Of a stretch of 64,000 nucleotides of DNA, positions 7,069 to 50,662 are shown one piece after another. The notes under the pieces were generated by a model, which had not been told where the DNA came from, ran no database searches, and saw only the letters and a program-made list of their open reading frames with translations. The first letter of the stretch is position 1; every line of letters starts with the position of its first letter. The stretch lies in IMG/VR virus record IMGVR_UViG_3300045988_174698; one strand, 5' to 3'. A program made the position numbers and the translations under genes. The DNA comes from a virus.

Positions 7069-7069
7069 T

Positions 7070-23142: not shown

Positions 23143-26100
23143 GTGTGGATACACAATTAAGTATTATCCTCTATTAAGCAGAGTCTTTAATACAAGTACA
23201 GATGAAGAATTTAAATCGTTTTTAGAGGAATATTTTATAGATCCAGATAGTGTATATAGAATGTTCTTGGGTGGGATTTCAACAAATCCTACCCAGACAT
23301 CTATATTTGAACCTAAGAAAATTAGTAGTAGAACTGGATGAGAAGTAAAAACTGATAGTAAATCAGCACAACAGTTTTATATTGGACAGTCTGTTCAATA
23401 TAATAAGATGACAAGTGACTTTGTTAAGAGAATTATATCTTTATCAGTATTTGATCTAGCAAGTGAGCAGTTTATAGATGCTAATAGAAAAGTTGGAGAT
23501 CTAACAGTATTAAATAGAGGTATTTTTGAATACAAAAAGGAGTTGCTATGATATGTATTATCATATTTAGGAAAACCTTCTCCTAATTTGGATAGTATGA
23601 CTGACGTAGATATTGAATCTACTATAGAAAGTACACTATCTGAATTTAGTAGTTATATAAATAATTCTCCTAATCTTGATAATAAATATTATCAAGCTTA
23701 TAATTCATATGTAACTCTTAGAACATTTGACGATCTATTAAAGCAATTAACACCATTTGTCTCTATTAATCCAGAATATAGTAAGTCTTCAATATATTCT
23801 AGAAATAGATATATTTATAATGGTCCTAATGTTACTCACTATACAGGATTTAGTACTAATGAATTTATGTCTCAAGAAGAAAGTGTTAGTGACCTTGCTA
23901 AGATACTCTTAAATTATCTTCCAGAAGTTAATATAAATGGAGATATTATTGATGGGACCTCTATTTCGTTATCTGGGTTTAATTCTGTAATGGGGAAGAT
24001 GAAATTATGAGCTGAAGAAAGTTCTAATCCAGAAGTAAAAGAAGAGCTTAAGAAAGGAACTAAAATGGATGTTAGTAAGCTCATATCTTTATATGAACAA
24101 GAACTATCTAACAGAAAAGTTTCTAATCCTGAGCATATAACTTATTTAAGATCAAAGTTATCAGCTATAAAAAGATTTATATATGACTCTAAAATGCATG
24201 AGGATATTAAAGACATGTTTACACATCTAATGGAAAAAACTGTTCTCTCAAGTTATGTTAGTTATGAGCAGAAAGATGGTAAAAGCATGGAAGTTAGAAA
24301 TCTAACACAACGTCCTATTAAAATGCAAAGAGAAGCAATAGTAGAAACAGTAAAGGCTATTACTCAATATTGAAAGCAAAATAGATCTAGATTTAATGAG
24401 TTACTTAGGAAGTATAATGTTAGAGGTATAGGTTCTGTTATATCTATTGGAGATAGTAGAATTACATTAGAGGGAAATGGAAAAATATCTATTACTGGTC
24501 CTATAAGTAATTTTAATGAAATAGTTGGGGACTTTGTTAATTTATTAATATCAGATGATTTTGATCAGGTAGCTAGTCAAGTATTTCCAAATAGTAACTA
24601 TACTAAGTATGAGTTATATGCTCCTGTATTAGGAACTGTAATTTTTGATGTTATCAACAACAGTAATACTAATCTCAATTTTGGACAGAGTAATGATTTA
24701 GGTAGAGTACTCAGTGTTATTAATGGATCAGATACAGTTAATGTCATTAAAAATGCAGAAGGTAATAACTTACCATTATATCAGATGATTTGTTTAAGTT
24801 ATCAACATAATGGTGTTTTTAATGAAATTAGTAAACAGATTGATGATAAAGATCTATATATGTCACAGTATCATGACAATGCTGTATATAAAAATATACA
24901 ACATGTCAAAAGTCCTAAAATTCGATCAGAAGTAACTATTAATGGAGTTACAAAGCAATCTTCTGCTCTTACAGCAAATGACGTTATGCACTTATCTATT
25001 GTATATGACTTTTATCAAGGCCTAACTATGGATCAATCTCATACTGAAGGATCTAGGTCTAAATCAGGAATTGTTGGTATTCAAAGTCATGTATATTCTG
25101 ATAAGAATAAACACTTTGTAATGCAGTTTGATTTAAATCAAACATGAGATTTTGGCAACGGTAATTCATTTAATATCAAATCTGTCCTAGATCAGTACTT
25201 TAAATCTGGAAATGAAATTGATTTAGAACCTATAAAGAAAGCTTGGTTTGAAAGTAATAAATCTCAGATAGAGAGTGTGATAGAAACTATTCTATCAGAT
25301 TATAGACAAGTATATCCAAATAAAGAATTTAATTCTATACATGATATTAAGGTATTCTTAGCTAAGAATAAAATAAATAAGGTTAGGGAAGATTTTGCTA
25401 GAGCTAATGTTGAATTTATTGATGAAATACATGCATCTAAAACTAAAGCAGGATGAGTGTTTAATGAAACTTTAGAAAATTTTGCTAATATATTTAGTAA
25501 TAGAGATAAGTTTAATGAGTTTTACAAAAGTCAGTTTACTAAATTTTTAGAGGATAGTTCTGGAGCTTGGTCCACTATTTCAGTAGATCAAAATATTGTT
25601 AACTCTTTTAAACAGAATAATCCTAAATTTGTAAAGGATGGTAAACTTCTCAAAGAAGTTAATGGGGTTATTAATCCTTTATTAGGTGCTTATTTTATTA
25701 CCGATTCATTTCTATCAAATGAATATAATAAAATGATGGTCGGAGATGTCTATGCTCACCCTAATAAAGAAAAAGAAAGTCCTACCACAAATGGATATCT
25801 AGATCATAGTCTAGCTTCTAGATGAATATCTCAGGTAAAACGTATGGTTATTTATGGAGCTACATATCATTCTCTCGCACAAGGTTTAAAAAATGGAGTG
25901 CCAGAAAGAGTTAAAATGGCTGTTATGTCTGATATGGGATCAAATGTAAGTAACATATCTGGAATGTCTAGTACTGTAGATTCTATGGATGGTTCAGGTT
26001 ATACTAGTCCATTTATGTCTAGATGAGAGAATGTATCTCTTATAGACGCTGCAGTAGGAGCTAACAAGAAAACTATCTTTCATGATGTTGATGCTAAACA

Positions 26101-28672
26101 CGGACTACCGAAATTACTTAAATGGGCTGAATATGAGATAACTAATGCTATCAGAAGAAATAGTTCTGATACTAGTATGGAAAACATCTTCAAGAAAATG
26201 CACAGTTTGGAATTGCCTTTAGATGTTACCATAGATTATGACAAGCAATTTGATGATCTATTCTTTAGGGATAATGTCAGTGGAAAATATTATAAAATAT
26301 TACATATTAATATCTCAAATAATGTAGCTCATAGAGAATTAGTTGAAGTTACTAAAGAAGGTGTTCCTATTAATCCTGATAATATTATTACTAATGATAA
26401 GCTAATTAAAAGTATATATGATATAGATCAAACATTTGGTGGTGCATGAGCTATGAAAATAGATAATCGTACCAATAATCTTCAGTATTCAGAACATAAT
26501 CTAGATTATACTAATCAAATTATTTGTGATTATGATCTTAAAGATTCTATGATTAGTTGGTTGGTAAATAAGTCAGCTATTAAAGTTGGAGCTTCAAATA
26601 TTAATGATGTAACTTCTTGAAATGATGGTACTCCATTATTATTTACTACAATGTCTACTAAGTTTGGAGGTGTTCAAATGAATGCTGATCATGAACTTGA
26701 TGAAGCAGAGGTAACTGAAATGACTCAAATGATTAGTGGTCTTGAACAAAACGGATATACTCATCATTTAGCAACACGAGTTTATGAAGAAATTGGTAAA
26801 TTCTGTTATGATGCTATTAGTAAAATTCAGGATATTATTTATAATGGAAATAAGGATGATCTTTACAAAATATTTGGAAAAGCTGTTATTAACGCATTTG
26901 CTGGCGGTAGTAAGGATACTCTAGGTTTAGCTCAGTCCTTTGTAAAACTTGCTCAGGAAGGACTAGAAAATAATAATTTAGAATATAGAATACCTTTTAG
27001 TTCTTCATCTATCAATGGCATTTTTAACTCTACAGTCACATCCTCTCTAGTAAGAGATGCGATTAGGCGTCACTACAATGGTGTTGCGGCAGTATTAAAT
27101 CCCTCATATAATGTAGTTCAATATCATACAATTAATGGTAACAATTATCGATATGAAGAATTAATAGATTTAATTGCAGAAGCTACAAGAGGTACAACTT
27201 ATGAGGGAATGACCGTAGATGATGCTGTAAATAAAGTTTTTGTTGTTGATACAAATGGAAATGTGGTTGTAAATCCATTTATTGATGATATTACTCCAGA
27301 TAACCCAGTAGATTTTGAGGATACTATTATCGTATGAGGAGAAAATAATCAAGTAGTAAAAATAGATAAAATAGATAGTTACAATAAATATATATACTAT
27401 CGATTATATGAGCCTGGGCGTATTAGTAGGTGGACAACTAAAGCTAAAAATCTTAAAGGATCAGATACTACTTTTGTAGCTAATGGACGTAAATATAGTA
27501 TGTTTGAAAGTCCTTATACTCAGGTGCTTCATTATTTTATTGAAAGTGATAGTAGTGCTACTAATATAGAGACCCTTAGAGATGAGCTACGTAGTGAAGT
27601 AATAAAATCAATACCTAATGAAAGAGCTGATGAAAATGTTATAGAGAATATAGTAAATAGCAGATTACAACTTATAGTAAATGAAATTACTCCATTTATG
27701 CCAAAAGGATTTACAGAAAAAACTTCATTTACAAAATATATTCCTAATATTAAAAAAGCTTTAATCAAAAAGCAGCAATCTGTTCTTAATAATTTAGCTG
27801 ATGGTAAGCCTATTGATTGAGGAGGATTAATGTTAAATGCTACAGAGTATAAAGTTATCCCAGCACAGATTATTATGGGTAAGCTTTATGCTAAAGAGTT
27901 AGGATTGCTTCCTGGTGATTCTATTGCTAAAATTAAGGAACAAGGTCCAGAGTTCTTTATAAATAGAATTGATGGCTACTACAATTTCTATGATAATGCA
28001 GATGAGTTAACTTATGACTGAACTTTATTTGATGGTGCAGGAAATAAGTTATATGTTAAACTTAGAAATCCTAAGATTAATGAACTGTTTACTAATTCAT
28101 CTTTAGATTCTGATTATAAGATTATTGATGGTTCAGTATACTTTAATGGTAATGAAATCTGCTCTTCTGAAGGAAAACAATTCTTAAAATATACTGATTC
28201 TGATAATGTTCAACATAATGTAGTTATTATTGATTCAATAGATAGACTCAAAGAGTTAGAAAATTCTAAGATGTTTACCTATACTCATAGAAATTATAGA
28301 ATTGATAACTATGTTGACTTAGTAAAAGAAGAGTTTGGAGAAGGAACATCTATTCAATTAACTTACCGACCAACTGGAAGTAGAAAATATACTACTAGTA
28401 ATATTGCTGAATTTAATGATAAACTTGAAATAATTCGAGCATTAGCTGAAAATCAAGATTATAATTGAACTAAACAAATTAGAAAATTAGCAGAAAATAA
28501 GTATAAATCTTTTGAAAAGAGTTTATATTTTGTTGGTACACGTATTCCTTGTCAGTCTATGCAATCGTTTGCTCCTATGGAAATTATTACATTTACTGAT
28601 AGTGAAGTAAATGAGGTATACGTTCCGACACAAATTTTCTACTTGGAAGGATCTGACTTGGATAAACTTTCT
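23132..28672 (+). CDS. exon 1 of an intron-split giant virion gene (~1847 aa of a ~2830-aa product)
   Basis: Eleven track ORFs from 23132 to 28468 are all in frame 2 and joined by TGA. The boundary is placed at U 28672 by frame arithmetic and a UUUCU/GGAAA P1 pairing. Confidence 0.55.
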
Positions 28673-29577
28673 ATGTTCAAGTAAAACTCTTTTAATTGCT
28701 GGAAACCCCTAACGTAAAGACGAGGGCAATCAGCAGCCAAGCCGTAACAAAACGGAAGGTTCAACGACTAATATTAATAACTTAATAATTCGACTTTAAT
28801 AGTATGAAACAGTTAAAAACACATTTAAATAAAATAGGAAGAAATTTAATAATTGCTATGTCTATAGGGGATGGGCATATAGCTAAAAAAGGATATTTAG
28901 ATATAAATCATTGTGAAGCTCAGAAAGAGTATTGTTTATGAAAATGGCAACTTTTAAAAGATAATGGAGTTAAAGTTGGCACGTTTAGAGAATGAAAACA
29001 AATAAATGGATATTCTAAAGGTAAAGAAGTAACTAAATATGGATTTCAAACAACAGTACTTGATTTTTGTAAAGTACTTAGACGAGTTGAATATGAGTAC
29101 GGAAAAACTAAATATAATAAAAAGTTACTTAAGCGACTTGGAGCTCAAGGGTTAGCAATATGAATAATGGATGATGGAGCATTACTTCGTAGATCTAAAA
29201 CAAATAAAGATGGAATACGAACATATTCAGGATTTTATATTACAATATCTACGTATTGTCCATTAGAGCAAGCTAATGATATTATAGAATATTTTAATGA
29301 AGAATGAGATATTTATCCGACTAAGGTTTTTGATAAAAGGCAGCAATCCTATATAATTAATTTTTGTGCCAGAGAAGGTAGAAAATTAATAGAAATTATA
29401 AAACCTTATATGTGTCCCCACATGATGTATAAGGTTCTTCCTGATAAAATAGAATGTGAAAACTACATGAAGTTATTAAAAGAAACAGCTGAAACTGCTG
29501 TTGAAGGTACACTAGAAATAGTGGAAATGGAGAGCGCGAAAGCGAAGATATAGTCTGATCTATATAGAAATATATAG
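28673..29577 (+). mobile_element. group I self-splicing intron 1 (905 nt) with a homing-endonuclease ORF
   Basis: Conserved group I P7 elements GGTTCAACGACTA (28758-28770) and AAGATATAGTC (29545-29555). Frame is restored with omega-G at 29577. It contains a LAGLIDADG ORF. Confidence 0.6.
28804..29553 (+). CDS. LAGLIDADG homing endonuclease (double-motif, ~250 aa), intron-encoded
   Basis: Motif 1 LIIAMSIGDGHI; motif 2 LAI-W(TGA)-IMDDGALL; C-terminal PYMCPHMMYKVL resembles I-SceI PYLIPQMMYKLP. The TAG stop lies inside the P7 3' strand. Confidence 0.85.
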
Positions 29578-30260
29578 TTAACACAATTGATAGATAAACA
29601 ATATATCCTTGGCTATTCATTATCATCTAATGGTCGTATTAATACTGATGAAAACTCAGCACCTTATTTACGAGCTGATGCATTAAGAAATAGAGTTGTA
29701 GATGGTGTATTTAGTATTATTCTTAATCCTAGAAACCAAATTAACTTAACAATGCCAGTAACTACTGATCGAATGCAAAGTCTTGCTAAAAGATCTAAAA
29801 TGGGTGAAGCTGCTAAATATATGAGTCCTTACAATCCAGCAAGTAAGTACTTAATGCAGATTCAAAATATGGTTGGTAAAGCAGTTATTGGTAATGTTGC
29901 TACGGCATTAAAAAGTTTCTTTGCCTTAAGCAACGTATATAATACCAAGTTTAGAGAGATTAATGAAGCAATTCAAACTGGTAATTTTGATATAGCTAGA
30001 ACGATGTTAAAAAGATATACATTTATCCATAATGATAGACTAATAACATTAGCTAATGTTAATATGGAAGTATTTGAGAGTCTACCTGAAAATACTCCTG
30101 AAGATATTAGACAAACTCTAGCTCAAGTAATTAGTTATGAGGATGCCTTAGATGATCAATCTATGGTACTTGGAGAACTTTTAAATAGTGCTACTGATTT
30201 TTTCATCAGAAAATTATTGAATAACTTGCCTATATTAATTTTTATTATTATCTTTGCACT
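29578..30260 (+). CDS. exon 2 of the split giant virion gene (~228 aa); the 3' boundary is uncertain
   Basis: Frame-1 protein-like ORF (track 29587..30264) lying between two complete sets of intron P7 elements. It is not HE-like. Confidence 0.5.
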
Positions 30261-31450
30261 ATAGATAAAAATAATTTAAAACAAATTAATATGGCAAAGA
30301 AATTAACAAATGAAGAAGTTGAAAAACTTCATAAAATGTATTTAGAAGGAATGACTTGTGAAGAAATTGGAAAACTTACAGGTCATAAAACAGAAACAGT
30401 ATCTAAATATCTAAAAGAGAATTATGATATAAAGCCTCAAAGAAAAATTGATTTAGTAATTTTATCAAAACTAGCAAAAGAGGGAAAAACAACTAAAGAA
30501 ATGGCAGAATATTTTAATGTACATCCTTCTGCTATATGCTATTGAAAAAAGTATTTTAATGAAGGAGATCTAAAGATTTCGCACCCTTTTTTGCAAGAAG
30601 ATCATCAATTATCTCATCTACAAGAACAAATGATTCTTGGCAGTTTATTAGGAGATATGAACATAGGAAAACCTAGAAAACATCATCCTACTTGTAGATT
30701 ATCCTTAGTACACTCAATTAAACAAAAAGAATTATTTATGAAGAAAGTAGAAATTCTTGGAGAATTTATGAGTAATTATAGAGAATATAGTTATTTAGAT
30801 AATAGAACAAATAAAATATATTCTACTATAAGAGGAAATAGTAAATCTCATAAAGTATTTAATGATATGTATAATAAACTATATATTAATGATATTAAAA
30901 CAATTACTAAAGAATATTTAGATATGATTAATCATCCAATAGCATTAGCTTACTGATTTATGGATGATGGAACGAATTCTGGACAAATAGCTACAAATTG
31001 TTTTTCTTTTGAAGAGGTTAAATTACTATCGAATTGACTAGAAAACAAATTTGGTATTATTACAACAATGCACAAAAATTTAAGAAATTATACTTTATAT
31101 ATAGTTGCTAGCTCTAGATTTGAATTTGATAATTTAATTTCTCCTTATATTATTCCTTCTATGAAATACAAATTAAAATTTTCTGAAATAGCAGAGTCAG
31201 TTAACTCCGTGAAAACGGGAAAGCCCTTAGAGATTTAAATACTAAACTATTATAGTAATATGATAGTGGCTAAGCTAATCACTTAGATATAGTAATAAGT
31301 TTAAATATTGGGTAATCCGTTACTAAGCTTCCTAATAGGAAGAAAGTTCAACGACTATCGAAATGCAGAAATGACAGAGTAGAGTAGAACTTAAGTAAGT
31401 TCGAAGTGCGGAGATCCTGTATAGGATAAGATATAGTCTGAACTCATAGG
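30261..31450 (+). mobile_element. group I self-splicing intron 2 (~1190 nt) with a homing-endonuclease ORF
   Basis: GTTCAACGACTA at 31346-31357 and AAGATATAGTC at 31428-31438. The putative omega-G at 31450 restores frame 0 of the downstream exon. Confidence 0.55.
30291..31238 (+). CDS. I-SceI-like LAGLIDADG homing endonuclease with N-terminal HTH domain (~315 aa)
   Basis: LGSLLGDMNIG (motif 1); ALAY-W(TGA)-FMDDG (motif 2, identical to I-SceI LAYWFMDDGG); LISPYIIPSMKYKL tail. Two in-frame TGAs (30543, 30954). Confidence 0.9.
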
Positions 31451-33761
31451 AAACTATGAGAGAACTTATGGAAACGATAAGTTCGTAACAAAATTGAATG
31501 CAAAGGAATTAATCCTTAAAAAAATTAATGCAGATACAAACTGGGTAGATATTTATACTATTTCTCTTATGTTAGGTGAATCACTAGATGAAATTGGTAA
31601 TTTAATGATTGATGATGATATAACAGAACTAGTAAATGATTTTACTACTAGTATGTTTAGTGATGAACAGAACTATGATAAAGTTCGTTATGTTGCTGAT
31701 AAAGCATATACCTCTGAAGGAGAGAAAAAAGAGAAATATCTACAATTGCTGGATAAAGTTATATCTGCGGATGAAGTACGTATCTTAGGAAAGATACTTA
31801 AAATTAATCAAGGTCTTCCTACAAACACTTCTGATTTATATAGTTATATTAAATCTATTGAAAAATATATAGAAAGTAGGTTTAATAGACAAATACTAGA
31901 AAAACAAGAAGAATATTTAAGAATTGAAAAGGAGTTAGAAAAAACTTGATTAACTCCTGAAAAGAAGGAAATATTAAAAGAGGAACGAAGATTACAAAAA
32001 ATATATCCAGAATTAGAAGAAGGGTCTTCATTATATAATTTCTATAATAAATACAATTTAATATATGAAGATATAAATGGTAATATTAGACATGGAGATT
32101 TAGAAGCCAAACTTGGTAAACCTAAAGAAGCTATAAAGGCTAGACAAGATTACTTTAAGTCTAGAAAAGAAATGGCTAATATCTGGCAATCTTTTGACTT
32201 AGTTAGATTTATTACCGATCCAATCTACAAACAGGAAAGTATTGAAAAATATGAACAAAATAAGGTTAATTTTAATATTTTGGAAGTAATCAGTGCAGTT
32301 CCTCATTTTAGAGAAATGTTTAATGTTCTTGCAATTAACAAAAGTGTTCTTAATAGTTTATCATCTAGAAATAGGTTAGAAGATATAATTCTAAACCAAC
32401 TTAGTAGGAACTTTGCTGGAGTTCGTATGGATGTAAGCAAACCACTAAATAAACTTGAAATTAGAACTATAAAAGATCAGATAGATAAGTATCTTATTAG
32501 ATCTTGGATTATTAGTAAAGGAATTGAAATAAATGTTCCCGCTAGTCCTAAGAATCCAGCTCCTTATATATTAAGATTGGATAATGAAAATAATATTAAC
32601 AAGTTTAGAAGTTATGTTGAAAACTACGCTATTCCTTTATTAAAGGATAAGTTGAAAAATAATAAGTTTGTTCAGCTATTAACTTTTGGACTAAGACAAG
32701 GAGTTCCATTCTATAAGCTACCACTTAACATGGTTCAAGTTGATAACACTCAGAAGACTAGGGCTTTATACGAAGAAGCATTATATGCTTTTAATAACCT
32801 TAATAAGGTCAAAATAACTGGTATAGATATGAACTTAGTGGATATGTTTTATCTATATAACTTAGTTGTTAATCAAGATAAATTTGGTCCTAATTCTATG
32901 ACTAGGATATTTGAAGACTTAGTATCATCTGGTAATGAAGATCTTCTTATATATGATTTTAATAATTGAATTGATAGTCAAAATATTGAAGACTTAGTTA
33001 ACAGATTTAGAACAGAAGAAAATAGTATTAGGTTTAATTTAGTAGAATCAACTCCTATTGTAGATGACACAAATTCTGATATTGGATTTAAAGAAACTCC
33101 TTTAGAAGAGGATATTGAAGAGGCTCAATATGAAGAATTAGCAGATAATCCTGTTAAAGAAAATAATGAAGTAGCTGAATATTATCAAACTAACCCTTCA
33201 ACTAAATCAAAACTTATAACAATAATTAAAGAATCTAATTTAAAAGGACTTCACATAGTTACAGATTCTGATTTAGTTAATGAAGATTCTACTACTAGAA
33301 ATGCTAGGGGATTTGTGAAGAATGGTGAAATCTATATTAATGTAGATAGAGCCGAAGATGATACAGTAGTCCATGAATTTAGCCATTTATATTTAGCAGA
33401 TGCTAAAGTAAATAGTCCTAATGAATACTATTCAGTACTAAGTAGAGTTAGAAATACAGGTACTTGGAAATATATGAGAGAGATACCTGAATATCAAAAT
33501 AAAAGAGGATCTGATTTTGATGAAGAGGTTCTAGCAACTTTAATTGAGCGAGCATATAATGAGGGATTAGGAGGAGCAGATTATGATGTTGCAATAGATG
33601 CTCTGAATCTTACATCTCCAGAATTTAAATCATTTATAAAATCTGATATTCTACCATCATTAGGAGAGACATTAATAGAGAATTATAAGGTATCTCAAAA
33701 GATAGCTACACTTAAAAATAAGCTCATCAAAGATAATATTATTAAAGAGGATTGTAAATAA
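31451..33761 (+). CDS. exon 3 of the split giant virion gene (~770 aa); contains an HExxH zincin-like motif (VVHEFSHLYL, ~33366-33395)
   Basis: Track ORFs 31494.., 32172.. and 33315.. are all frame 0 and joined by TGA; TAA at 33759-33761. Confidence 0.55.
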
Positions 33762-36700
33762 TGGAATGTACATATGAAACTACAATAAACGGTAAGAAGA
33801 TAAAGTTCAGCTCCGAAATGGAGCTGGACAACTTCTTATCAAGTAAATTAGCAGATTATCAAATAAACGAATCAGATTTAACTTTTCAAATTAATCCTAT
33901 AGATAGTACTATAGAGAAGGTAAATGCTATTACAAGTAAAGTTAAAAATGCTTCTATAGAATCTGTAATTATAAATGATGATGGAGATTCAGAAACTATA
34001 CTTAAGATTCCTGACTCAATAGGTACTACTAGATTTATTACATCTAATGGGGATCCTTCTAATATGCAAAAGGAATTAGTTCCTCCTTTTAACTTAAATG
34101 ATTTCTTAAAAAAAGAAAGAGAAAGATTAAGTGCAGAAGGAATGACTAAATCTCAAATTGATTCATATTTAGAAAAGTTACAAAAGTCTTGAACTCAGTT
34201 AACTGATTATGGTACTGAAATACATTCCTTATTTGAAAGTATTATTAATAATACTACATTCAAACCAACTAATTTGAGTGAAGAACAGGTATTACGTTTA
34301 ACTGAAGAATTTAAATCCTTTATTGAAGATATTAAATCTAAATATGGTAAAAATGCTAAAATCTTAACAGAAGTTCCTATAATATCAGATAAAATTCATG
34401 AAGCATATCAATCAGAAGGAATTAAAAGTATTAATGGTAGAATTGATATGCTAGTTATTGACCAGAGAGGATTTGCTCATATTTATGATTTTAAAGTTTC
34501 TAGAAAAGAAGTAGGAATATGAGAGGATACTAGAAACATACAAGGATCAACTACATGGCACTCTACTAAAAAACGTTCTGTGGGGTATCAGTTAGGAATA
34601 TATAAGAATATTCTAGCACAATATGGCATTACTGTAGGAGAAACAAACGTTGTTCCTATTAAAATAGATCCAGAATATAATGAAGATGGAACTATTAATA
34701 AGCTAAATGATGCTTATATTGATTTTACTAAAATAAAAGTAAATCCTAATGCTCCATATACAGAAACTATAAATACTATTCTTCCAGTAAAAACATTACT
34801 TGATGATATTGATCTTATAAACTCAATTCAGGAACCAATGACTAAATTTGTTCCTAATTATGCAGTAGAAACTCAGGTACAGAGAAATACAGTTACTGTG
34901 GATAAATACATTAATAATCCTAGAATTGTACACTATATTGATGACACTGACCCAGAACGAAAGTTTGGAAAATACTGAATTTGGAATAAATATAAGAAGA
35001 ATCGTAAAGTATATGCTAAAACAGAGGAGGAACTCAGAGAAAAAGTACAAGAATTAGTAAATGAAGAAAATAAACATATTCACTCTGAAATGTCTACCTT
35101 AGCGGATACCATTCAACAAATTATTGAAGGATATGGATCCATTGATGACTTAGCTGCTGATAACCCATTTAAGTCTGATTATTGTAAAAAGATATTTAGA
35201 AAATATTTAGTAAAAAAGAGTGAAACTGACTATGGATGAACTTTTCAAAATAATCCTAAATTTATAGCTGCAGGTATATTTGTATTTACTAAGGATGGTA
35301 AAATGGAAATAATATCTGTTACTCATAATGATATTCATTCAGTTGTTAATTTAGGTCTTGGCAAATCTATTCAAGGAGCAACTAAAAAGGATAGTGATAT
35401 TGATAGTCATGTAATAATGCAAGCATCTAACGGTAATATTGACCTTGTTAAAGTTATGTGTTTATTAAATAATATGCCTGAGGTACTTAAAGGATACAAA
35501 GTTAATAAAATAGAATCACATAATATTTGAATTCAAAAAGGTACTGAGACCTATTTAGAAACTCTTTTAGATAATTTTTCTGAATTATGCAGGATACATG
35601 GTATTACCAATAATCTTACATCTCAAAATTTTGCAACAACATTAGAAGCAGCTGTAAATATAATAAGAGATACTGCTGGTGAAGAATTACTATCTCACAT
35701 GGGTAATTGAGAATTTAATTTTAGTCCTAATGATATTGTAAATGGAGTTCCATTCATCTTGCAGAAAATGGAACAACTAAGAAAATTAAAATCTGCAGAT
35801 GGCCTTCGTACTGCTTTAAGAGAAGGCAAATGAAATTTTGATGATCCTATTCAGCTAGCATATATGTTATTAGGCAGAGCACTAAATAAACTTAACGGAT
35901 ACTCTATTTATATTGAACAAGATCCTAAATTGTGAGTAAATTTTTCTAGGGAAGGATGATACACTGGTTCATATGTGAATAGTGCTAGTAACTCTTCTTC
36001 TAAAAATATTCAAACATTAAGTAAAATATTTTCAGTAGCAGAAGCTCATATTAGAAGGAAAGAATTATCATACAAACCTAGGATTAGTAAAGTAGTTAAG
36101 GCTTTATATGAATACAATCACAGAAATAGACTTATTGGAGGTGAGGTTAAGTTTTTTGATAACTTATTTGTTAAGGATACAAACGGTAATATAGATAAAT
36201 CATTTAGACTAAAAAATCCTTCAGATAGTAGTTTGGCTAAGGAAGAATCTGACTTTATTAAGATGTTTCTAGAGATAGTAAATGATTTTAGATTTGATGG
36301 TAATCAAAGTAAAATAGCTAAAGCCATTGAAGACGGTTCTTACTATGAAGTTCCTGTTTCTATGGGAAGTACATCTACTCAAATCCACAATAAAGGATAT
36401 AAACAAGCCTTTACATCTAAATATAATGAAGCTTTAAACTTTCTAAAACTTCTTCCTGAACAAGAGCAACAATTTAGGGAATCAAAAGGAGAGCCAAAGG
36501 TATATAATAAATATAGATTAAATGGACTTAGTAGATCTGATTTAATTGAAAATTATGGGATAGATGGTCTAGAAACTCAACTTGAAGATTTGCTATTAAA
36601 TGTCATCCATACATACACAATGGAAGAAGTAATGAATGAATATCTTCCCAGACTTCAAGGTATTAAGATTGCCTTACAATATCAAACTGGGATGTTTGGA

Positions 36701-38161
36701 GTAGTTACTGATCATGTTTTAGAATATATAGATAAATTTATTGATGCTAACGTTTATAGTAAGCCTATTATGGCTAAAGAATTGCAAGGTGCATATAAGA
36801 TGTTATCTGTAGTTAAATCAATAACAACAGCTACCGCTCTCGGTTTAAATCTTAGATCAGGTATTCGAGAAATGATGCAGGGAATGTGAATACATCTAAG
36901 TAGAACTATGGCAGAAGCTTATGGAAAGGATCAGTTTACTAAAAAAGATGTTGCTAAAGCATGGGCTATTATATTTAAACAAAGTGTTAAAGATATTAAT
37001 ACTTTAACATTAATTGATGCCTTAAATGTGGATTATGGAATGGCTAACGCCGATCCCCATCAAGTCCAAGAGAGACTAAGTTCATCTAAAGCAGGTATTA
37101 AAAATTTAGATTCTGATTCACTATACTTCTTTAATAGAGTACCTGACTCGTATCATAGAATGGGATTATTAATTGCTAAGATGTTGCATGACGGATGTTA
37201 TGAAGCTCATAGTATTGTCAATGACCAACTTATCTATGATTTCAAAAAGGATAAAAGATTTAGTTTATTGTCTGATTCTAAAGCTGATAAGAATTCTATA
37301 GAGTATAAAAAGCAACATGCTTTATATACTGCTATGAGAGAACAGTTTAATAGAGAAGGATGAAATATCCAAGATGGAGATGATTTACCACGGGCTTATA
37401 CTATTCAAGAAGGAACTAGTATTAAATCGTTTGCGGAATTATGCTTTGGGCACTATGATAAAAGTACGCAAATGCTTATGAAACAAATGTTTCTAGGTGC
37501 TATGATTCTACAATTCAGAACATTCCTATCAGCTAAGTTTGAACAGTGGATATTAAAGCCAGATACTTATAATCAAGGTCAATACACTGAAAAATTTGAT
37601 GAAAATGGAGTAAGATATATTCGTATATTTACATTTGATGAAAAAGGAATTCCATCTGTTAGAATCGGTCTTGAAACAGAATTAAAACCTGATGATATTT
37701 GGGAACCTTACATTGAATGGCAAGGCAGATTTATGGAGGGAATTGCATATTCAATAATTAGTTTTGGAAAAACATTATACAAGTTAGATTTTAATGGTTT
37801 TAAAGAACTATGAAAAAATCCAACTAAAAGAGCTAATTTCTATTTATTCTTACATGATATGATCTGAATGTCTATACTTATGTGAATTGTTAAAGCTCTA
37901 TTTTTATCTGAAGAAGAAGATCTTGGACCTGTGGGTCATTTAGTAGGTACTTCATTATATACATCTTTTTCTGACGGGCCAATTACTAATATTATGGCTT
38001 CAATGTTTGGAGATTTAAATCCACCTATGCATAGCATAGTTGTGAACTTATATAGACAAACTTCTGGAATAATTACAGGAGATGTTAATTTATTTGATGC
38101 TGGTGTCAATTCATTTGGAGCATTAAATAGTTTAAAATATATTGGTGATCAGTTAGAATAA
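33761..38161 (+). CDS. giant virion protein (~1467 aa) with N-proximal PD-(D/E)xK (RecB/Cas4-like) nuclease motif
   Basis: Eight track ORFs 33761..38161 are all frame 2 and joined by TGA. 'GRIDMLVIDQRGFAHIYDFKVSRK' matches D...(D/E)xK nuclease motifs II-III (~34430-34510). Confidence 0.55.
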
Positions 38162-38228: not shown

Positions 38229-38735
38229 TTACTTGGGAATTAACACCATGTTCATTCTTTTACCTTCCAACTTTGGTTTAGATTCAACTTTAGCAATATC
38301 TTCAAGATCCGTAGTCAAACGTAACAAAAGAGATTCTCCCTGATCTTTAAACATAATTTCTCTACCTTTAAACATTATGTATGCTTTTACTTTAGCTTTT
38401 GAATTGATAAATTCTCTAGCATGTTTTAGTTTAAATTGATAATCATGTTCGTCTGTCTGTGGACCAAATCTTAGTTCTTTAACTATAACTTTCGCTTGAC
38501 CTGCTTTTAAGACTTTTTCCCGTTTTTTCTGTTGGTATAGAAATTTCTGATAATCTTGAAAAATACATACTGATACTTGGTTTTTATTGTTATCAATATA
38601 TACTGATAGTTCAATTAAATCAGTATTAGTATCTACAGCCTTCCTTAAAGCATCAGAAAGAGAAATTAACTCCCCGCTATCTTTTATTCTGATAATCTGA
38701 GAGTTAATTTCATAATTTATAGAGTAATTTTTCAT
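38229..38735 (-). CDS. infC: translation initiation factor IF-3 homolog (full length, both domains)
   Basis: The 168-aa product aligns along its whole length to bacterial IF3: DYQKFLYQQKKREK...KELRFGPQTDEHDYQFKL...FKGREI...VESKPKLEGKRMNMVLIPK vs E. coli DYGKFLYEKSK...KEIKFRPGTDEGDYQVKL...FRGREM...[20 protein letters not shown]. Confidence 0.9.
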   Translation of the reverse strand: MKNYSINYEINSQIIRIKDSGELISLSDALRKAVDTNTDLIELSVYIDNNKNQVSVCIFQDYQKFLYQQKKREKVLKAGQAKVIVKELRFGPQTDEHDYQFKLKHAREFINSKAKVKAYIMFKGREIMFKDQGESLLLRLTTDLEDIAKVESKPKLEGKRMNMVLIPK

Positions 38736-38903
38736 TTACTTCTTTACTTTCTTATCATTATTACATACTGTACAAGTACCTACTCCAGTTTTTTCATTTA
38801 TATTAAAAACTCTTTTAAATTTACCGTAAGTAGTATCTTGAAACTTGTGAACAATATTATTTTGTGCACAGCTGTTACAGTATTTTATTTCTGTATTTGC
38901 CAT
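38736..38903 (-). CDS. small Zn-ribbon protein (55 aa; CNSC...CTVC) immediately upstream of infC (TAA-ATG junction)
   Basis: Hand translation of the minus strand gives MANTEIKYCNSCAQNN...GTCTVCNNDKKVKK. It is below the track size cutoff. Confidence 0.5.
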   Translation of the reverse strand: MANTEIKYCNSCAQNNIVHKFQDTTYGKFKRVFNINEKTGVGTCTVCNNDKKVKK

Positions 38904-38924: not shown

Positions 38925-39620
38925 TTATTTAAGTATTTTAGAAGCTAAATCTGAAACTTTATTAAATAGATTCTCGATACTTCCATCATTATTAATGATA
39001 TAATCAAATTTATTATTTTGAAATAGTTCTATTACTTCACTTTCACTACGATGAGACCCTGGAATTTGATTTCTGTCTATATAAATAACTATTCCATTAT
39101 TATTTTTTACTTGTTCATATTCATTAATAAATCTTAAATCTGATATAATAATATTATCTTTATCTAATAAAGTTCTTAGTACTCAGAAGTTATTTCCAAA
39201 ATATTCTCTTATTATTTCAGTTCCAAATATTTGTAAAAGTTGTCTAATACTAATATAATAGTTTGATATAACATTTAACTTTTTTGATTTTATCATTCTG
39301 CTTAGTTGCTTATCTGTGATCATTAGATTATTATCAGGAAAAGCTGTAATATGGATACTCTGTAGGTTAATATATCAATTCTCCTTGAAATCTCTATCAT
39401 TAAATTTTTCAACTGGAACATTAATTAAAACAGATAAAGCTTCCTTCATTGAAGAGGCGAAACTTGTGATTTCATATTTAGATACAATAAAATCATATAC
39501 TAGGCAATACAACCAATATTGTCTCATTCATTTGGGAACTGAAAGACAATATCTTATCATATGGGCAGTTAAATCCTTACCAGAATTTTTAAGCCCAGAA
39601 ATTGCTATAATAGTCTTCAT
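38925..39620 (-). CDS. deoxynucleoside monophosphate kinase (T5 Dmp / T4 gp1-like)
   Basis: Code-4 translation: Walker A AISGLKNSGKDLTA (T5: SGVKRSGKDTTA). C-terminus IINNDGSIENLFNKV resembles T5 ITNDGSLEELFSKI. Two in-frame TGAs. Confidence 0.65.
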
Positions 39621-40839: not shown

Positions 40840-41922
40840 TTAAATAAGTTTTGCAGCTAATTTTGGGTTAAGTAATAGTTTATTACATTTACCAGGATAG
40901 TGTTTGTTTAGTGTTCTTACTAGGCTAAAGAGTAGATCTTCAGTTAACAATAACTTATCATTATCAACTATCCTAAGAATACGATCTATAATTAGGTCCA
41001 TTTTACACCCAGGTTTACTAAGATATAATAAGCTATAATTTATAAATCTAGTGGTAATTACAGAAGCTATATCGGCACGATACTTACCTTTATCATATAA
41101 TTGATTCTCAAGTATCCTTTTAATATCGTTCCAATCCGTATTAACTAGTTCTTCTGGGGAAGGAAGTTTATCTAATTTATTAGCTATGAATGTAGTAAAT
41201 AATCCCCCAACAATATCATCACTATCAAGAAAACATCCAGAAGCTATTTGCAGAATAAAGGATAAATTCTCAGGTTTAGACCAATCATCAATACTAGAAA
41301 TAGTATTAATAAACATAGTATAATTGCGAGCATTAATTTTAGACTGCCTAGATTTTGAACGGTCCATTAATTCATCACTATAAAGAAGCATAAAGTTAAT
41401 CGCCTGATTATTATACCCTTTTTCCTCGGCATATTTAGCCCAATCATATTTATCAAACTTAATATTAAAGTTTAACATACGGGTTTTTATAGCCTCATCA
41501 ATTTCTGTTACATTAAAATCTCCCCCTTCAGGATTAGCTGTTAAAATAACAGTACTATTAGGAGGTAATTTCCAAGAGAAATATTCTTGTCTTGATATAA
41601 GCTCCATAATAGCAGCCAATACAATTGGAGAGCTACGATTCACATCGTCAAGATTCAAAATTGTAGGTTTACTTAGATCAATACTTTTTATCCATTCTGG
41701 AATTGCATAGCTCATTCTAGTTTCCTCAGATATTTCCCAACCTGCTTTACTATAACTTTCTATAAGTTCTGCAGTTATCCATCTACATTCATCATTTTTA
41801 CATACATAGTGCTCTTTAATTGGCCACCCGCAAATTTCTCCTGGGTCTGAAATTTGACTAAGGTTTTTCTTGATGTAATTAGCACCAATTTCACTAGCTA
41901 TTTGTTCGATTAAACTCGTTTT
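40840..41922 (-). CDS. MoxR-like AAA+ ATPase, exon 2 (from KTSLIEQIA of Walker A onward; 360 aa)
   Basis: Walker B/sensor region ILNLDDVNRSSPIVLAAIMELI...VILTANP matches the MoxR/AAA_5 pattern (ADEINR ... NP). Confidence 0.6.
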   Translation of the reverse strand, partial: KTSLIEQIASEIGANYIKKNLSQISDPGEICGWPIKEHYVCKNDECRWITAELIESYSKAGWEISEETRMSYAIPEWIKSIDLSKPTILNLDDVNRSSPIVLAAIMELISRQEYFSWKLPPNSTVILTANPEGGDFNVTEIDEAIKTRMLNFNIKFDKYDWAKYAEEKGYNNQAINFMLLYSDELMDRSKSRQSKINARNYTMFINTISSIDDWSKPENLSFILQIASGCFLDSDDIVGGLFTTFIANKLDKLPSPEELVNTDWNDIKRILENQLYDKGKYRADIASVITTRFINYSLLYLSKPGCKMDLIIDRILRIVDNDKLLLTEDLLFSLVRTLNKHYPGKCNKLLLNPKLAAKLI

Positions 41923-43338
41923 CAATTTTGTTATCTCTAGAGCTTTTTATCTCTAGATTCTATATCTTCATATTCGATATAGTTCAGCATATCTTTTCAC
42001 CTCTAAAAATAGTAAGGTGGAGCACACTCGTGGGAAAATTATATTCTGTACAACAGGTTCATTTCCTATGCGTTGCACTGTAGCAAATCATTTAAATCTG
42101 CTATTAGCTCAGGATTAGCATCTCAGCCTTCCCTGAATTTGCGCTCTAATAATTTTAAAGATTTCTCTTTAAAACGGCAATCTTTGATTTTATTAAATAT
42201 TTGATATTTTCTATCTAAATAAATTGTTGATTTATAATATAGGTGATATAAGTAGGCAGTTGCCTTTATTCCCGAAAAACTAAATGCAAAAGTAAAATCG
42301 CTATGATTATTAGAAAACAAATGTCTAGGCTCTAAGTAGCTTACCATTTTACTTAAAAATTCTTTTGCACCTAAACAGCTTATTTCTGGTTTATCATATA
42401 ATCCTAATGACCCATCACCATCAAAATATCCTCTAATAAAATGTCTTATTAAATCTTTAGACTTAAAGATATTTTCATTAGGAAATTTTAAAGTCAGTGA
42501 CTTTTTAGGAGTACATCCGTAAGAATTTAATGTTTCTCATAAGTGTTTATTTGTTAGAGCAAATCTACATCTAAAATATTGCTTATTGTTACATATAATA
42601 GATGATATTTTTACTCTATTACCTGTTACTTGAAAAAACTTCTGTAATTTATATAAATGTTCCACATCAGATCCTTTTAAAGAAACTTCAAAATTATAAT
42701 GAGGTTTTCCATTTTTAGGAATTGAAGCAATATATCCATCAGCAAAAATAAAACCCAATCAATAAGCTTTTTCTTCGGTATCTATAATATCAAAAATGTG
42801 TTCATTAAATTTTAGCATATTTTGAGTATTAATAACTGGTATTCCAAGTTTCTTTAATCTAATAGAAAAATTGCTTCGACTAAATTTATATTTATTACTT
42901 ATTTGTGTTAGGCTATAACCATTACTATACATCTGCACTGCCTCTTCAAAGTAAGTATCTAAATTACTCTTTCGTATATTAATGTTATTATTATGAAGAA
43001 TAGTGGAAATAGTATTTCTGGATACATTATATAGTTTAGCTATATCACTACAAGTTTTACCCAAATTATATAGTTTACAAATATTAATTTTTTCAGATAA
43101 TATTAATTTACTACACTCTCTACAAAGAGAATTTCTATTAGCTACACGACTAACTGTAGTAGGATGTACTTTACAAATTTTACTTATATCTTTAATCTTA
43201 TAACCTTGATTATATAAATCAATAATCTTATTTTCTAAATCATTACTAATTTTTTGCATAATATTTAAATTTTAAATAAATTAAATCTATGCAAAAGTAA
43301 TAATATAAAACAATTTAATCAAATATTTTATAATAAAT
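41923..43338 (-). mobile_element. group I intron (~1416 nt) carrying a LAGLIDADG HE, splitting the Walker A codons of the MoxR-like ATPase
   Basis: Exon 1 ends GGU AUA GGU|U and exon 2 starts |AAA ACG AGU after an omega-G, giving LPGIG-KTSLIEQIA. An AAGATATAGAATC P7-3'-like element and a perfect P9-like hairpin tctagagataaaaagctctaga lie just upstream of the 3' splice site. Confidence 0.55.
42123..43259 (-). CDS. LAGLIDADG homing endonuclease (~378 aa) with N-terminal repeated HTH domains
   Basis: Track ORFs 42759..43259, 42537..42758 and 42123..42347 are in frame and joined by TGA. Motifs LGFIFADGYI and IRGYFDGDGSLG. Confidence 0.85.
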
Positions 43339-47870: not shown

Positions 47871-48328
47871 TATGTATTCATTTTATAAAACATTTGTATC
47901 TTTTCTTTCAAATCATATAGTATTGCTTTTTCCTGAACAGTATTTACAAATAGTTCGTACATATTATACTTTTCATCATTATATATTAACAACATATCAT
48001 TAATACTTACATCAATATAATTACCTCCTATATAATATCGTAATTTAAAATTAATATATGAATTATTACATTCATACTTAATATCTGTATAACATTCTGA
48101 AGCAATATTTAATAAATTATTAATAAAGTTCTTTGTATAAGATACAACCATTCTATTTGTAATTGGAATCCTACTCTTTGTTCGGTCTTCAATATTTCTA
48201 ATAACATCATTTACAACACTATCCCTTGCTATTATTGTAGCTTGATCTGATTCAATTTTACAAGTTCGAGATTGAAGATTAGAAACAAACAGTTGAATTT
48301 CTTTTAAAGTTAAATTTTCATCATTCAT
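47870..48328 (-). CDS. hypothetical protein (152 aa)
   Basis: Track ORF. Confidence 0.45.
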   Translation of the reverse strand: MNDENLTLKEIQLFVSNLQSRTCKIESDQATIIARDSVVNDVIRNIEDRTKSRIPITNRMVVSYTKNFINNLLNIASECYTDIKYECNNSYINFKLRYYIGGNYIDVSINDMLLIYNDEKYNMYELFVNTVQEKAILYDLKEKIQMFYKMNT

Positions 48329-49253
48329 TAAAATAATTTTAATTGTTTATGCTTAAACATACATACGATTTTTTGTGCTGCAGCTATATAAAAAGAATAA
48401 TTAATATTAGATGGTAATTCATCAGATTTATTAATAGTATTCAAAATTGTTACGCCAGAGTCAGTTAATAGTTTAATATAGTTATATCGTCTACCATTAG
48501 AATCTATTTTACATTTATATAGCCATGGACCATCAGTAGATATATAATATCGGTTAATACGTTGAATTAACTGACCATCATATTCTACAGAATAATCTTT
48601 ACTAACTTTTTGATAAGTTATAAACTTATTAATATCCTTACAAGCATAAATAGTATCTGCAACAGGAATTCCATCTGCTAAACATTTATTAATAGCTTCG
48701 GGAATAATAACTGCATCCATACCTTTGCCAAGTTTTACCTTGTCGATAAACATACCTTTTGTCTTTAAAAGACTTGGATCTTTTGTTTCAGAATAACCTT
48801 CCTTAATTGCAAGATAGTCATTAATAGCAAACTGATACATTGCTTCAAATCTATCCTCTTCAAGAGTAAGTTTAGTTAAGATTTCCCAATTCTTGCAAAT
48901 TTCTTGTACATTGGTATATTTGTTTCGTTTTAATAGTACAAATAATCCATCAGTATTAGCTTGAATTATTCTACAACCTGCTTGAACTAATTTCTCCGCT
49001 AACATTAATAACATCAATTGTCCATTAATTCTAATTTGCATAACAGCATATGGAGAATAACAAAAATTATGTTCATTTTGTAGATTACCAGACAAACCGT
49101 TTAAAGCAAGTTTTAGAGTTTCATTCTTAACTTTATTTCCATTATGTTTAGCTTCTAATCGTTCATCTCGAATTTGAGAGTAAACTTCAAGGAATTCTTT
49201 ACCAAGATGTTTTGGATAAAATCCATATTGTATAATAATGCTAGGATATAGTG
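48328..49253 (-). CDS. family B DNA polymerase, exon 2 (from SLYPSIII of motif A to the C-terminus; degenerate motif C ANTDG)
   Basis: Hand translation upstream of track ORF 48328..49095 gives ...ALYPSIIIQYGFYPKHLGKEF... The exon begins after an omega-G. Confidence 0.8.
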
Positions 49254-49638
49254 CATATCCATTTTAATTTTCGACTATATCTTAATTTTTATATCTAATT
49301 TGTTCTGAATTTAATTCAATGTAGTGTCATTTAAAGCCTTTATATGAAGCTTTTGTACCTTGACAACAACAATAAATGGATATAACCAAATTAAATTTAT
49401 AAAAATTCGCGGCGTTTCGAATAAAACCTTATAAAGTTTTATCCTACTCTCTTTCGAGATAGTCTGTGAACCTTGATCCTATAAGGATCCTTGGCTGCGG
49501 ATTATAATACTTATTAAGTTTTTACTTTCTCATAAGCGTTATCTTATGTGCTACACTATGTATTACTACTAGCTGCAGTATTAATAAGTTAAATTAAGTT
49601 CCCGCAATTAACCGCGTTTTACTTGCGCCACTATATTA
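49254..49638 (-). mobile_element. ORF-less group I intron (385 nt) inside motif A of the DNA polymerase
   Basis: Contains AAGGTTCACAGACTA (plus 49452-49475) and AAGATATAGTCG (plus 49272-49283), near-identical to the Tetrahymena P7 strands. P1 pairing UUGCGU/GGCGCAA. Splicing yields DIDVA-S-LYPSIII. Confidence 0.75.
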
Positions 49639-50662
49639 ACGCAACATCTATATCAATAAGCATTTCATCTTTTGTAGGTATAATTTCCTCAGGTTTATTA
49701 ACACTATGAATACCTCCAACTCCAACAGTATATTCTAATTCATCAAATATAAAATGTTTCTCATATCCTTTACGTCCAGGAGAAACTGTTTGCTTTTTCA
49801 TATCAGCTAATACACTTTTAAGTATAGGTGATTCAAACTCAATAAAAGGTAAAATAACCTCATTTAATGGAATTAAATCGCAAGGTGACCTCAAATCTTT
49901 AATTTGATTTCAGGTTTGTCCTGTTTTTTCAAGATACTTTTGAGTAATAATTTTCATTCCAATATTAACTCCATCTTTATTAAGTACCTTTACTCCATAC
50001 TCATCTTCAATAGCTATACGTAAATCAATATCCTTTTTACATCTATTTAATAATTCCTCAGTAGAATCAACATCATTAATATTATATTCTATCATTTTAG
50101 GAATTTCAGATACAGGAAGATAATCTTGGAAATCGCCTTCATATTCTTGAACATTTCGAAACTGCATAGTTACTTGCATCTCCTTTAACCCTACTCTCAA
50201 CTTTTGAGAATAAAGCATAGTTAACAAGTCTAATGTTTCAAAATAAATTTTATATTTCCACTTTGTTCAAGAACTAAAATTAGTATCAGTAGATTGAATT
50301 ATTAAATTACTAAGTTTAAATAAAGATGCGCATATCTCTGAATACGACATCTTTAACATTACTTTATGAAAATCAATAATATAATTAATAATAGGATTAT
50401 CATAATGAATATTATTGTATCCACAAAATATTTTATCTGTTTTAAACTGTAAGTTTGTAGTATAGTTTCTTTCTCAAATACCAATTTGAGATTGATTTCT
50501 AACAGTTCAAAATAAATCTACTAACTCTTGTAAATTATTCTTACGTTCAGATATTTCAAAAAATAAGCGTTCTCCTGTTTCTGTATTTTTTACAACACAG
50601 TGAAACACATTAGGAAATATTTCAATATCATAAACGTATACAGTTTTATTTCTAATTAACAT
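49639..50662 (-). CDS. family B DNA polymerase, exon 1 (3'-5' exonuclease domain and palm up to DIDVA)
   Basis: Code-4 translation gives Exo I YVYDIEIF, Exo II FCGYNNIHYDNPII and a second YNINDVDS block. Start ATG overlaps the upstream stop (TAATG). Three in-frame TGAs. Confidence 0.8.

Follow-up and report, generated by a model that had tools for sequence, protein, structure and literature searches.

A phage-encoded homologue of translation initiation factor IF3 at the tail of a replication gene arm

Why does a phage carry a gene for a translation initiation factor, and is that gene tied to the altered genetic code of the phage or to the small gene next to it? These questions are raised by a 64,000-nucleotide stretch of viral DNA (IMG/VR record IMGVR_UViG_3300045988_174698; the whole stretch is called the window below), in which a reading of the sequence alone pointed to a gene for initiation factor 3 (IF3, encoded by infC) with a zinc-ribbon (Zn-ribbon) gene directly upstream. 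The gene encodes a complete IF3 homologue which belongs to the phage and is kept by selection. We consider it fairly probable, judging from comparative sequence data, that the protein acts as IF3 on host ribosomes to the benefit of the phage. Its gene is located as follows:

38229..38735, minus strand: phage infC homologue (168-aa IF3); ATG start, TAA stop, no Trp or TGA codon

A complete IF3 resident in phage genomes

The 168-aa product is a full-length two-domain IF3 homologue, as the sequence-only reading had it, and the identification is secure. The open reading frame (ORF) is laid out as an N-domain (residues ~1-74), a Lys-rich linker (75-84) and a C-domain (85-168). Both Pfam domains of IF3 score above their gathering (curated) cut-offs: IF3_N (PF05198) with 37.3 bits versus 26.9 over residues 6-74 (profile positions 1-68 of 70), and IF3_C (PF00707) with 112.2 bits versus 34.8 over residues 85-168 (profile positions 3-86 of 86). 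The NCBIfam equivalog TIGR00168 (infC) spans residues 3-168 (profile positions 4-168 of 170) with 131.4 bits versus a cut-off of 60. IF3 chains from solved 30S initiation complexes (5me0_Y, 8jsg_A, 5lmn_X) align with the phage protein from end to end (E = 2e-28 to 3e-27), and no gaps are needed to align its linker 'YQQKKREKVLKAGQAKVIVKE' with those of IF3 from Bacteroidales, E. coli, Geobacillus and Thermus. The automatic JGI annotation already calls the protein IF-3.

For residue-level comparison, seven members of the phage clade were set against 80 Bacteroidales IF3 proteins and the E. coli, Geobacillus and Thermus references; E. coli numbering is used throughout. The C-domain is 67-70% identical between phage and host IF3, compared with 69-79% between host families. 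Among the 76 columns conserved in at least 95% of the 80 Bacteroidales proteins, 46 are identical in all seven phage sequences, and most of the others hold conservative changes. D106, Y107, K110, R133, R147 and R/K168, which mutagenesis studies implicate in IF3 function and 30S binding, are kept in all seven clade members, except for K168, replaced by N in one of them. A loss of conserved 30S-binding residues had been named beforehand as a possible outcome; at D106, Y107, K110, R133 and R147 it was not observed.

The neighbouring features needed to follow the gene through other genomes are these:

38736..38903, minus strand: 55-aa Zn-ribbon ORF, with the pattern C-x2-C ... H-x-F-Q-D-x2-Y-G-x3-R-V-F-N ... 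C-T-V-C
38925..39620, minus strand: deoxynucleotide monophosphate (dNMP) kinase gene; Pfam PF21448 DNMK, 60.6 bits in the code-4 translation; three in-frame TGA=Trp codons
39624-40838, minus arm: g404, a 404-aa ORF upstream of the dNMP kinase gene
33761..38161, plus strand: convergent 1466-aa gene, last of the plus arm in the code-4 gene map; 14 in-frame TGA codons
38160..38203, minus strand: intrinsic terminator closing the minus arm; 15-bp stem (7 GC pairs), 5-nt loop, then UUCUUUUUUU

The gene belongs to the phage itself. Eight IMG/VR genomes of 100-171 kb share the order g404, dNMP kinase, Zn-ribbon, IF3, convergent 1466-aa gene, with IF3 identities of 94-95% and 76%, and the shorter order from the dNMP kinase through to the convergent gene was found in three more divergent contigs (IF3 identity 67-70%). 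In human-gut data an identical IF3 protein is encoded on 251 contigs of up to 193 kb, contigs of 160-193 kb among them. Its base composition is that of the phage: the gene has a GC content of 29.2% versus 29.4% for the window, and 21% GC at third codon positions (GC3) versus 18.8 +/- 3.3% for the genes of its arm, while 80 Bacteroidales infC genes average 50% GC and 61% GC3.

The ratio of non-synonymous to synonymous substitution rates (dN/dS, Nei-Gojobori method; pairs with dS from 0.22 up to saturation) was 0.12-0.15 over the whole gene and 0.14 at the unsaturated pair (dS 0.22). It was 0.12-0.23 in the N-domain, with one pair at 0.43, and 0.07-0.15 in the C-domain. Since it is low in both domains, both are maintained by purifying selection. 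Host contamination or a recent transfer is rejected on the evidence of synteny across at least 11 independent contigs, of GC and GC3 and of dN/dS. A location in host-derived flanking DNA, a possibility left by the sequence-only reading, is thus not what the conserved phage synteny and phage-like base composition show. One orthologue (L213, 4001-4498) starts with TTG (LKERL... in translation, MKERL... in the deposited protein) and shares 20 nt with the 58-aa ORF before it.

The gene had been placed first after the terminator, at the head of an early arm. This is wrong: transcription of the minus strand runs from high to low coordinates, and IF3 is the 3'-terminal gene of the minus (replication and nucleotide-metabolism) arm, with the terminator downstream of its stop codon. 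The terminator scan puts the start of the hairpin (38203-38169) 25 nt past that codon. The folding energy of the hairpin is -24.4 kcal/mol (minus strand) and -23.3 kcal/mol (plus strand), with z ~ -6.5 and none of 200 shuffles folding as well; on the plus strand the hairpin follows the convergent 1466-aa gene. Its service as a bidirectional terminator between the two arms, proposed earlier, is plausible. No terminator-like site was found between the dNMP kinase, Zn-ribbon and IF3 genes, and the gaps between them are 21 nt and 0 nt, so the three genes are likely to be co-transcribed.

Origin, insertion and the Zn-ribbon neighbour

The closest cellular proteins among 5.8 billion searched are IF3 of Alistipes and Tidjanibacter (56-58% identity), and a scan of GTDB species genomes returned IF3 of Rikenellaceae, Prevotellaceae and other Bacteroidales at 52-57% identity. 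The phage IF3 clade was monophyletic in 100 of 100 neighbour-joining (NJ) bootstraps and was never sister to the E. coli, Geobacillus or Thermus outgroups. In 86 of the 100 it was nested among Bacteroidales, and its branch is long. A capture from Mollicutes, prompted by genetic code 4, was also considered and rejected, the nearest cellular matches in the 5.8-billion-protein search being all from Bacteroidales. The question put by the sequence-only reading, Bacteroidota or Mollicutes, is therefore answered by a grouping with Bacteroidales, in a tree that held no Mollicutes sequence. IF3 proteins of other phages branch elsewhere (that of MT837394 with Prevotella, that of a Lak megaphage at the base of Bacteroidales) and are independent captures. 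The phage IF3 clade thus has a single origin, and the best explanation of these sequence relationships would be one capture, long ago, from a Bacteroidales bacterium.

The place of insertion can be read from the relatives. Several sister lineages keep g404, the dNMP kinase, the Zn-ribbon gene and the convergent 1466-aa gene in this order but lack IF3 between the last two. The distance from the Zn-ribbon stop codon to the end of the convergent gene is 44-63 nt in most of these IF3-less lineages versus 574-575 nt where IF3 is present; with a gap of only 44-63 nt, most sister lineages have no room for the gene. One further sister lineage has a gap of ~412 nt at the junction, with no IF3 match in that gap. 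When the same viral collection was scanned with a pattern for Bacteroidales-like IF3, none of the IF3-less sister contigs came up. Orthologues of the convergent gene are 26-98% identical across the compared lineages. The simplest reading of this junction is that IF3 was inserted once, as an accessory gene, between an already present Zn-ribbon gene and the arm terminator, in one sublineage.

In related phages, the stretch where the replication arm meets its terminator is a hot spot for insertions. An ORF of 50-58 aa for a single-pass membrane protein lies between the Zn-ribbon and IF3 genes in three contigs (L007, ~5843-5995; L211, 3835-3999; L213, 3844-4020). A 142-aa ORF follows IF3 in L211 (4539-4967), and a lipoprotein-like ORF of ~200 aa (MKKFYLFLLCVLACSC...) follows it in L001 (~6510-7280).

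The Zn-ribbon gene was described earlier as a CxxC...CxxC ORF with its TAA against the infC ATG, and this description is accurate: the stop codon directly abuts the start codon ('...AAGAAGTAAATGAAA...'). In the subclade of the window this TAA-ATG junction may couple translation of the two ORFs. The dNMP kinase gene lies 21 nt upstream of the Zn-ribbon ORF, and that adjacency is kept across the phage group (L001-L008, L211-L213 and the IF3-less relatives).

What is the Zn-ribbon protein? It has no family in Pfam, NCBIfam or PHROG and no relative in the PDB by profile. An exhaustive profile search gathered 137 cluster representatives (E = 1e-31 to 1e-3), nearly all of them shorter than 100 aa and most between 43 and 75 aa long. 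Common to them is the signature C-x(1-2)-C ... H-x-[FY]-Q-D-x2-Y-G-x3-R-[VL]-x-N ... C-T-[VI]-C, with C-x2-C-x6-H in the crAss-like subgroup and C-x-C-x-H in most other members. Its structure, predicted by AlphaFold2 from a 139-sequence alignment, matches the family in BFVD with template modelling (TM) scores of 0.63-0.83. Members include an uncharacterised protein of Pseudomonas phage PA5oct and A0A8S5RTP4 of 'Siphoviridae sp. gcode 4'. The family is found in viral contigs of 5-211 kb, usually beside genes for DNA replication or nucleotide metabolism. The suggestion that the protein might resemble ribosomal proteins bL31 or bL33 did not hold, as no sequence or fold match and no similarity to ribosomal proteins were found. 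From its distribution it appears to be a widespread, uncharacterised small phage protein tied to DNA and nucleotide-metabolism modules.

A degenerate DNA pattern for the signature located the family in at least 116 stretches of viral-collection (IMG/VR) DNA, and the 80 listed loci were examined. IF3 adjoins the Zn-ribbon gene in six of them, all within the clade of the window itself; the other 74 have no adjacent IF3. Comparative genomics thus rejects a dedicated IF3 partner. A joint action of the two proteins, for instance with the Zn-ribbon protein as a ribosome-binding or IF3-binding cofactor made by coupled translation, would fit the abutting stop and start codons in the subclade of the window and the adjacency kept in L001-L006 and L212. 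However, at least 74 viral loci hold the Zn-ribbon gene without adjacent IF3, some of them in sister phages whose arm simply ends with this gene; a transmembrane ORF parts the two genes in L007, L008, L211 and L213; elsewhere the Zn-ribbon gene stands beside genes for DNA ligase, the clamp-loader ATPase, phosphoribosyltransferase or dNMP kinase; and the protein is unlike ribosomal proteins. We regard such a two-component module as highly improbable. The Zn-ribbon protein is probably a neighbour of IF3 and not its dedicated partner, and IF3 is independent of it in its occurrence.

Genetic code and start signals of the phage

The different genetic code claimed from the sequence alone is borne out. 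Over six frames and with overlaps included, ORFs of 100 codons or more sum to 82 kb when TGA is read as sense, up from 51 kb, and the longest ORF grows from 1.9 to 7.8 kb; reading TAG as sense gives no comparable gain in the window. The dNMP kinase matches DNMK only once its three in-frame TGA codons are read as Trp. Read in code 4, the window consists of two convergent arms meeting at ~38.2 kb, where GC skew flips. The plus arm (1-38161) has five giant ORFs of 1445-2562 aa, and the genes of the minus arm (from at least 63931 down to 38229) serve replication and nucleotide metabolism. TGA makes up 71% of Trp codons on the plus arm (87 TGA, 36 TGG) and 33% on the replication arm (30 TGA, 60 TGG); recoding is thus graded between the two arms and not limited to one.

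Could IF3 help a phage that reads TGA as Trp to be translated in a host with the standard code? Such a link had been suggested, and all that speaks for it is that IF3 and recoding occur together in the genome of the window; some other recoded phages (Lak) carry IF3 too. IF3 acts at initiation, not in stop-codon decoding. The sister lineages speak against such a role: those without IF3 at the junction have 5-24 in-frame TGA codons in their orthologue of the 1466-aa gene and are recoded too, which makes recoding independent of IF3. The absence of TGA from the IF3 gene is uninformative, because the gene has no Trp codon. A survey of recoded phages names suppressor tRNAs, release factors and tryptophanyl-tRNA synthetase, not IF3 (bioRxiv 2021.08.26.457843). 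We give a recoding role next to no probability and reject it. No tRNA genes, suppressor or initiator, were found in the window.

The start signals give no stronger reason for a special factor. Shine-Dalgarno (SD) sequences were said to be lacking, and this is confirmed: an SD core lies upstream of 4 of 48 window genes versus a background of 10.7%, so there is no enrichment. However, SD-less leaders are the norm for Bacteroidota and their phages, and the lack of SD sequences calls for no special IF3. The leaders (-25 to -1, 48 genes) are A/T-rich, and their strongest single-position signal is A at -3 (56%). This recalls the Kozak-like context reported for Bacteroidota. Use of TTG 'at several genes' fared less well: nearly all window genes have an ATG where expected, and about 3-4 of the 48 have an upstream in-frame extension beginning with TTG, these being candidate starts only. 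AUG, GUG and UUG are the start codons favoured by IF3 (Singh 2022, PMC9723500). As the TTG candidates are IF3-favoured and the absence of SD sequences is normal, neither calls for a special IF3. In the gene for an AAA_5-type ATPase (40840-41925, minus strand) the first ATG comes 70 codons past a TTG; the stretch between looks protein-like and orthologues have 400 aa, so this gene has either a TTG start or an interrupted 5' end.

Fragments of the PolB gene are ~75% identical over ~600 nt to Crassvirales cr125_1 and cr114_1, and the window has no otherwise close relative among deposited phage genomes. The 'Zeta' group of crAss-like phages comprises human-gut phages of 145-192 kb with a non-standard code, many introns, inteins and homing endonucleases, a complex replication and dNTP module and giant ORFs in the transcription block (Yutin et al., 2021, PMC7886860). 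We infer from size, code, gut origin, gene content and endonuclease density that the crAss-like phage of the window most resembles this group; the genes for its terminase large subunit (TerL) and major capsid protein (MCP) lie outside the window.

Three ORFs for LAGLIDADG homing endonucleases (Pfam LAGLIDADG_2/3 plus a helix-turn-helix domain) were found at 28804-29553 (plus), 30291-31238 (plus) and 42066-43259 (minus). They sit between apparent fragments of large genes, including a split PolB, and the flanking fragments are at 23132-28684, 29752-30264 and 31569-33761 on the plus strand and at 49631-50662 and 48328-49041 on the minus strand. This arrangement suggests introns or inteins. No Rfam family, including group I and II introns, reached its gathering score in the window, and introns near these ORFs are suspected only.

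Proposed role and comparison with known IF3 proteins

In the scenario that we favour, a Bacteroidales IF3 gene would have entered an ancestor of one sublineage among the large (~160-190 kb) crAss-like gut phages that recode TGA. The gene is most likely transcribed as the last cistron of the replication and nucleotide-metabolism arm, and in the subclade of the window its translation is probably coupled to that of the Zn-ribbon ORF via the TAA-ATG junction. The conserved C-domain would bind the host 30S subunit at the platform and P-site region, like cellular IF3, where the phage protein would keep subunits dissociated and speed formation of the 30S initiation complex. Extra IF3 during infection could thereby make more initiation-competent 30S subunits available to phage mRNAs. 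The remodelled N-domain, in which the equivalent of Arg66 and the Gln33 loop are lost, may alter the stringency or speed of start-site checking.

The start codon of the gene may matter as well. E. coli infC starts with AUU and represses itself through this non-canonical start codon. Among the 80 Bacteroidales infC genes, 27 (from Rikenellaceae and several uncultured families; within L010-L089) have no in-frame ATG before the conserved core, and 13 of those 27 have ATC, ATA or ATT as a candidate start; Prevotella infC starts with ATG (MKNDK...). This suggests that start-codon autoregulation of infC is lineage-specific within Bacteroidales. Should host infC be autoregulated by way of a poor start codon, the phage copy, with its ATG, would be free of that repression.

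Several observations weigh against the scenario of a phage IF3 working on host ribosomes. G121, invariant in the 80 Bacteroidales and three reference proteins, has given way to Lys throughout the clade. Between phage and host IF3 the N-domain shows only 38-47% identity, compared with 61-74% between host families, and it lacks P62 and P63 (invariant in 80 of 80 Bacteroidales), A60 (79 of 80) and R/K66. With such a diverged N-domain the protein may depart from normal IF3 behaviour. IF3 is missing from the junction of many sister phages, so any benefit would be accessory and not essential. As for its setting, NJ bootstrapping did not resolve the sister group of the phage IF3 within Bacteroidales, and the Zeta assignment draws on genome size, code, gene content and homing-endonuclease density.

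The N-domain changes concern the contacts with initiator tRNA. In E. coli IF3, R25 (invariant), R66 (well conserved) and Q33 (variable) contact the elbow of the initiator tRNA; R66A raises initiation from AUA 1.5-2 fold, and the triple mutant R25A/Q33A/R66A raises initiation from AUU ~5 fold, with IF3 being evicted more slowly from 30S (Singh et al., 2022, PMC9723500). The phage clade keeps the equivalent of the invariant Arg25 in all seven members and loses the other of the two conserved elbow contacts: all seven have I, T or V at the Arg66 position, where 80 of 80 Bacteroidales proteins as well as E. coli, Geobacillus and Thermus have R or K and 41 of 42 other viral IF3 have a basic residue. 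The hairpin loop that carries Gln33 is ~4 residues shorter, the Q33 loop itself being deleted. In front of the near-universal motif 'A-x-P-P-V-C-R' the phage clade has 3-5 extra residues, and the motif itself has become 'N-Q-V-S-V-C-I' in the protein of the window. The change of PP to [VI]S within it is common to many other viral IF3. In IMG/VR, many viral IF3 proteins carry '[IV]S[IV]CK' in place of the canonical 'PPVCR'.

Since the N-domain is under purifying selection, these changes look maintained. They may lend some indirect support to an earlier idea, that a phage IF3 retunes host ribosomes. An N-domain without the Arg66 and Gln33-loop contacts could alter discrimination of start codons or initiator tRNA and so favour phage over host mRNAs, and the clade-wide loss of the basic residue, the shortened loop, an N-domain dN/dS of 0.12-0.23 (changes maintained, no decay) and the higher AUA and AUU initiation of E. 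coli R66A and the triple mutant (PMC9723500) all point that way. However, Arg25 is retained, unusual phage start codons were not in evidence (the few candidate alternatives are the IF3-favoured TTG), the PP to [VI]S change is widespread in viral IF3, and the phenotypes of E. coli mutants may not carry over to Bacteroidales ribosomes. We regard such reprogramming of fidelity as rather unlikely. In its strongest form we can only speculate that the N-domain has been reshaped under selection to proofread start sites differently from the host factor, favouring phage mRNAs on SD-less Bacteroidales ribosomes; if this were true, the protein would be a natural IF3 'fidelity mutant' serving as a tool of viral takeover.

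The combination of an intact C-domain with partly lost tRNA contacts could also be read as a host shut-off factor, which would bind 30S, be poorly released through its uncoupled N-domain and so hold down or skew host translation. In E. coli, mutants altered at the N-domain contacts do keep IF3 on ribosomes and grow poorly (PMC9723500). On the other hand, a general inhibitor would block phage mRNAs too, and no phage-specific bypass was found; the gene lies among replication genes at the end of a long operon and not among typical early shut-off genes; and the linker length and all checked C-domain residues are those of a working IF3. Shut-off seems very unlikely to us.

Three aspects of this system may make it useful. 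Sister phages with and without IF3 at one shared junction form a natural experiment. An IF3 with a kept C-domain and changes at residues that set fidelity in E. coli could illuminate initiation on SD-independent Bacteroidales ribosomes and how a phage might bias it. Two tempting links, of IF3 to its Zn-ribbon neighbour and to stop-codon recoding, are removed, and what is left is a phage IF3 under selection in a crAss-like lineage and abundant in human-gut data (251 contigs).

The literature searched, including the main text and supplements of Yutin et al. (2021), has no mention of IF3 in crAss-like phages, and no phage-encoded initiation factor has been experimentally characterised in the searchable literature. 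Genes for initiation factors were said to be rare in phages, which agrees with an IF3 match in 60 of 50,697 phage records. IF3 homologues were also seen in 47 IMG/VR viral contigs of 12-501 kb (L223-L261 among them) and are not restricted to huge phages; some of the short contigs may be host contamination.

Cellular Bacteroidales IF3 (Alistipes, Tidjanibacter, Prevotella) shares with the phage protein its two-domain architecture, its linker length and R25, and the two are 52-57% identical overall and 67-70% in the C-domain. The phage copy differs in being phage-encoded with phage base composition, in its 'VSVCI' in place of 'PPVCR' with the preceding 3-5 residue insertion, in the shorter N-domain hairpin loop and in the change of G121 to K. 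Compared with Rikenellaceae IF3 it also lacks the basic N-terminal extension of 35-50 aa and the C-terminal GKK tail, and its gene has an ATG start, unlike the 27 of 80 Bacteroidales infC genes without an in-frame ATG.

Few phages encode an IF3, but the gene has already been described from other large phages. Examples are Lak megaphages (LR7565xx), Agrobacterium phage Atu_ph07, Yersinia phage fHe-Yen9-04 and Xanthomonas phage XbC2, and IF3 of huge and jumbo phages has been read as redirecting or supporting translation (PMC7162821; PMC7824862; Al-Shayeb et al., 2020; Iyer et al., 2021). Those proteins are 31-45% identical to the window IF3, are independent acquisitions and belong to genomes of more than 200 kb, whereas the window IF3 is found in a crAss-like phage of ~165 kb; and 41 of the 42 other viral IF3 are basic at the Arg66 position, where the window clade is not. 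By these comparisons, what appears to set the window IF3 apart is a crAss-like genome below huge-phage size, a clear history of insertion and the clade-wide loss of a predicted tRNA contact, that of the Arg66 equivalent.

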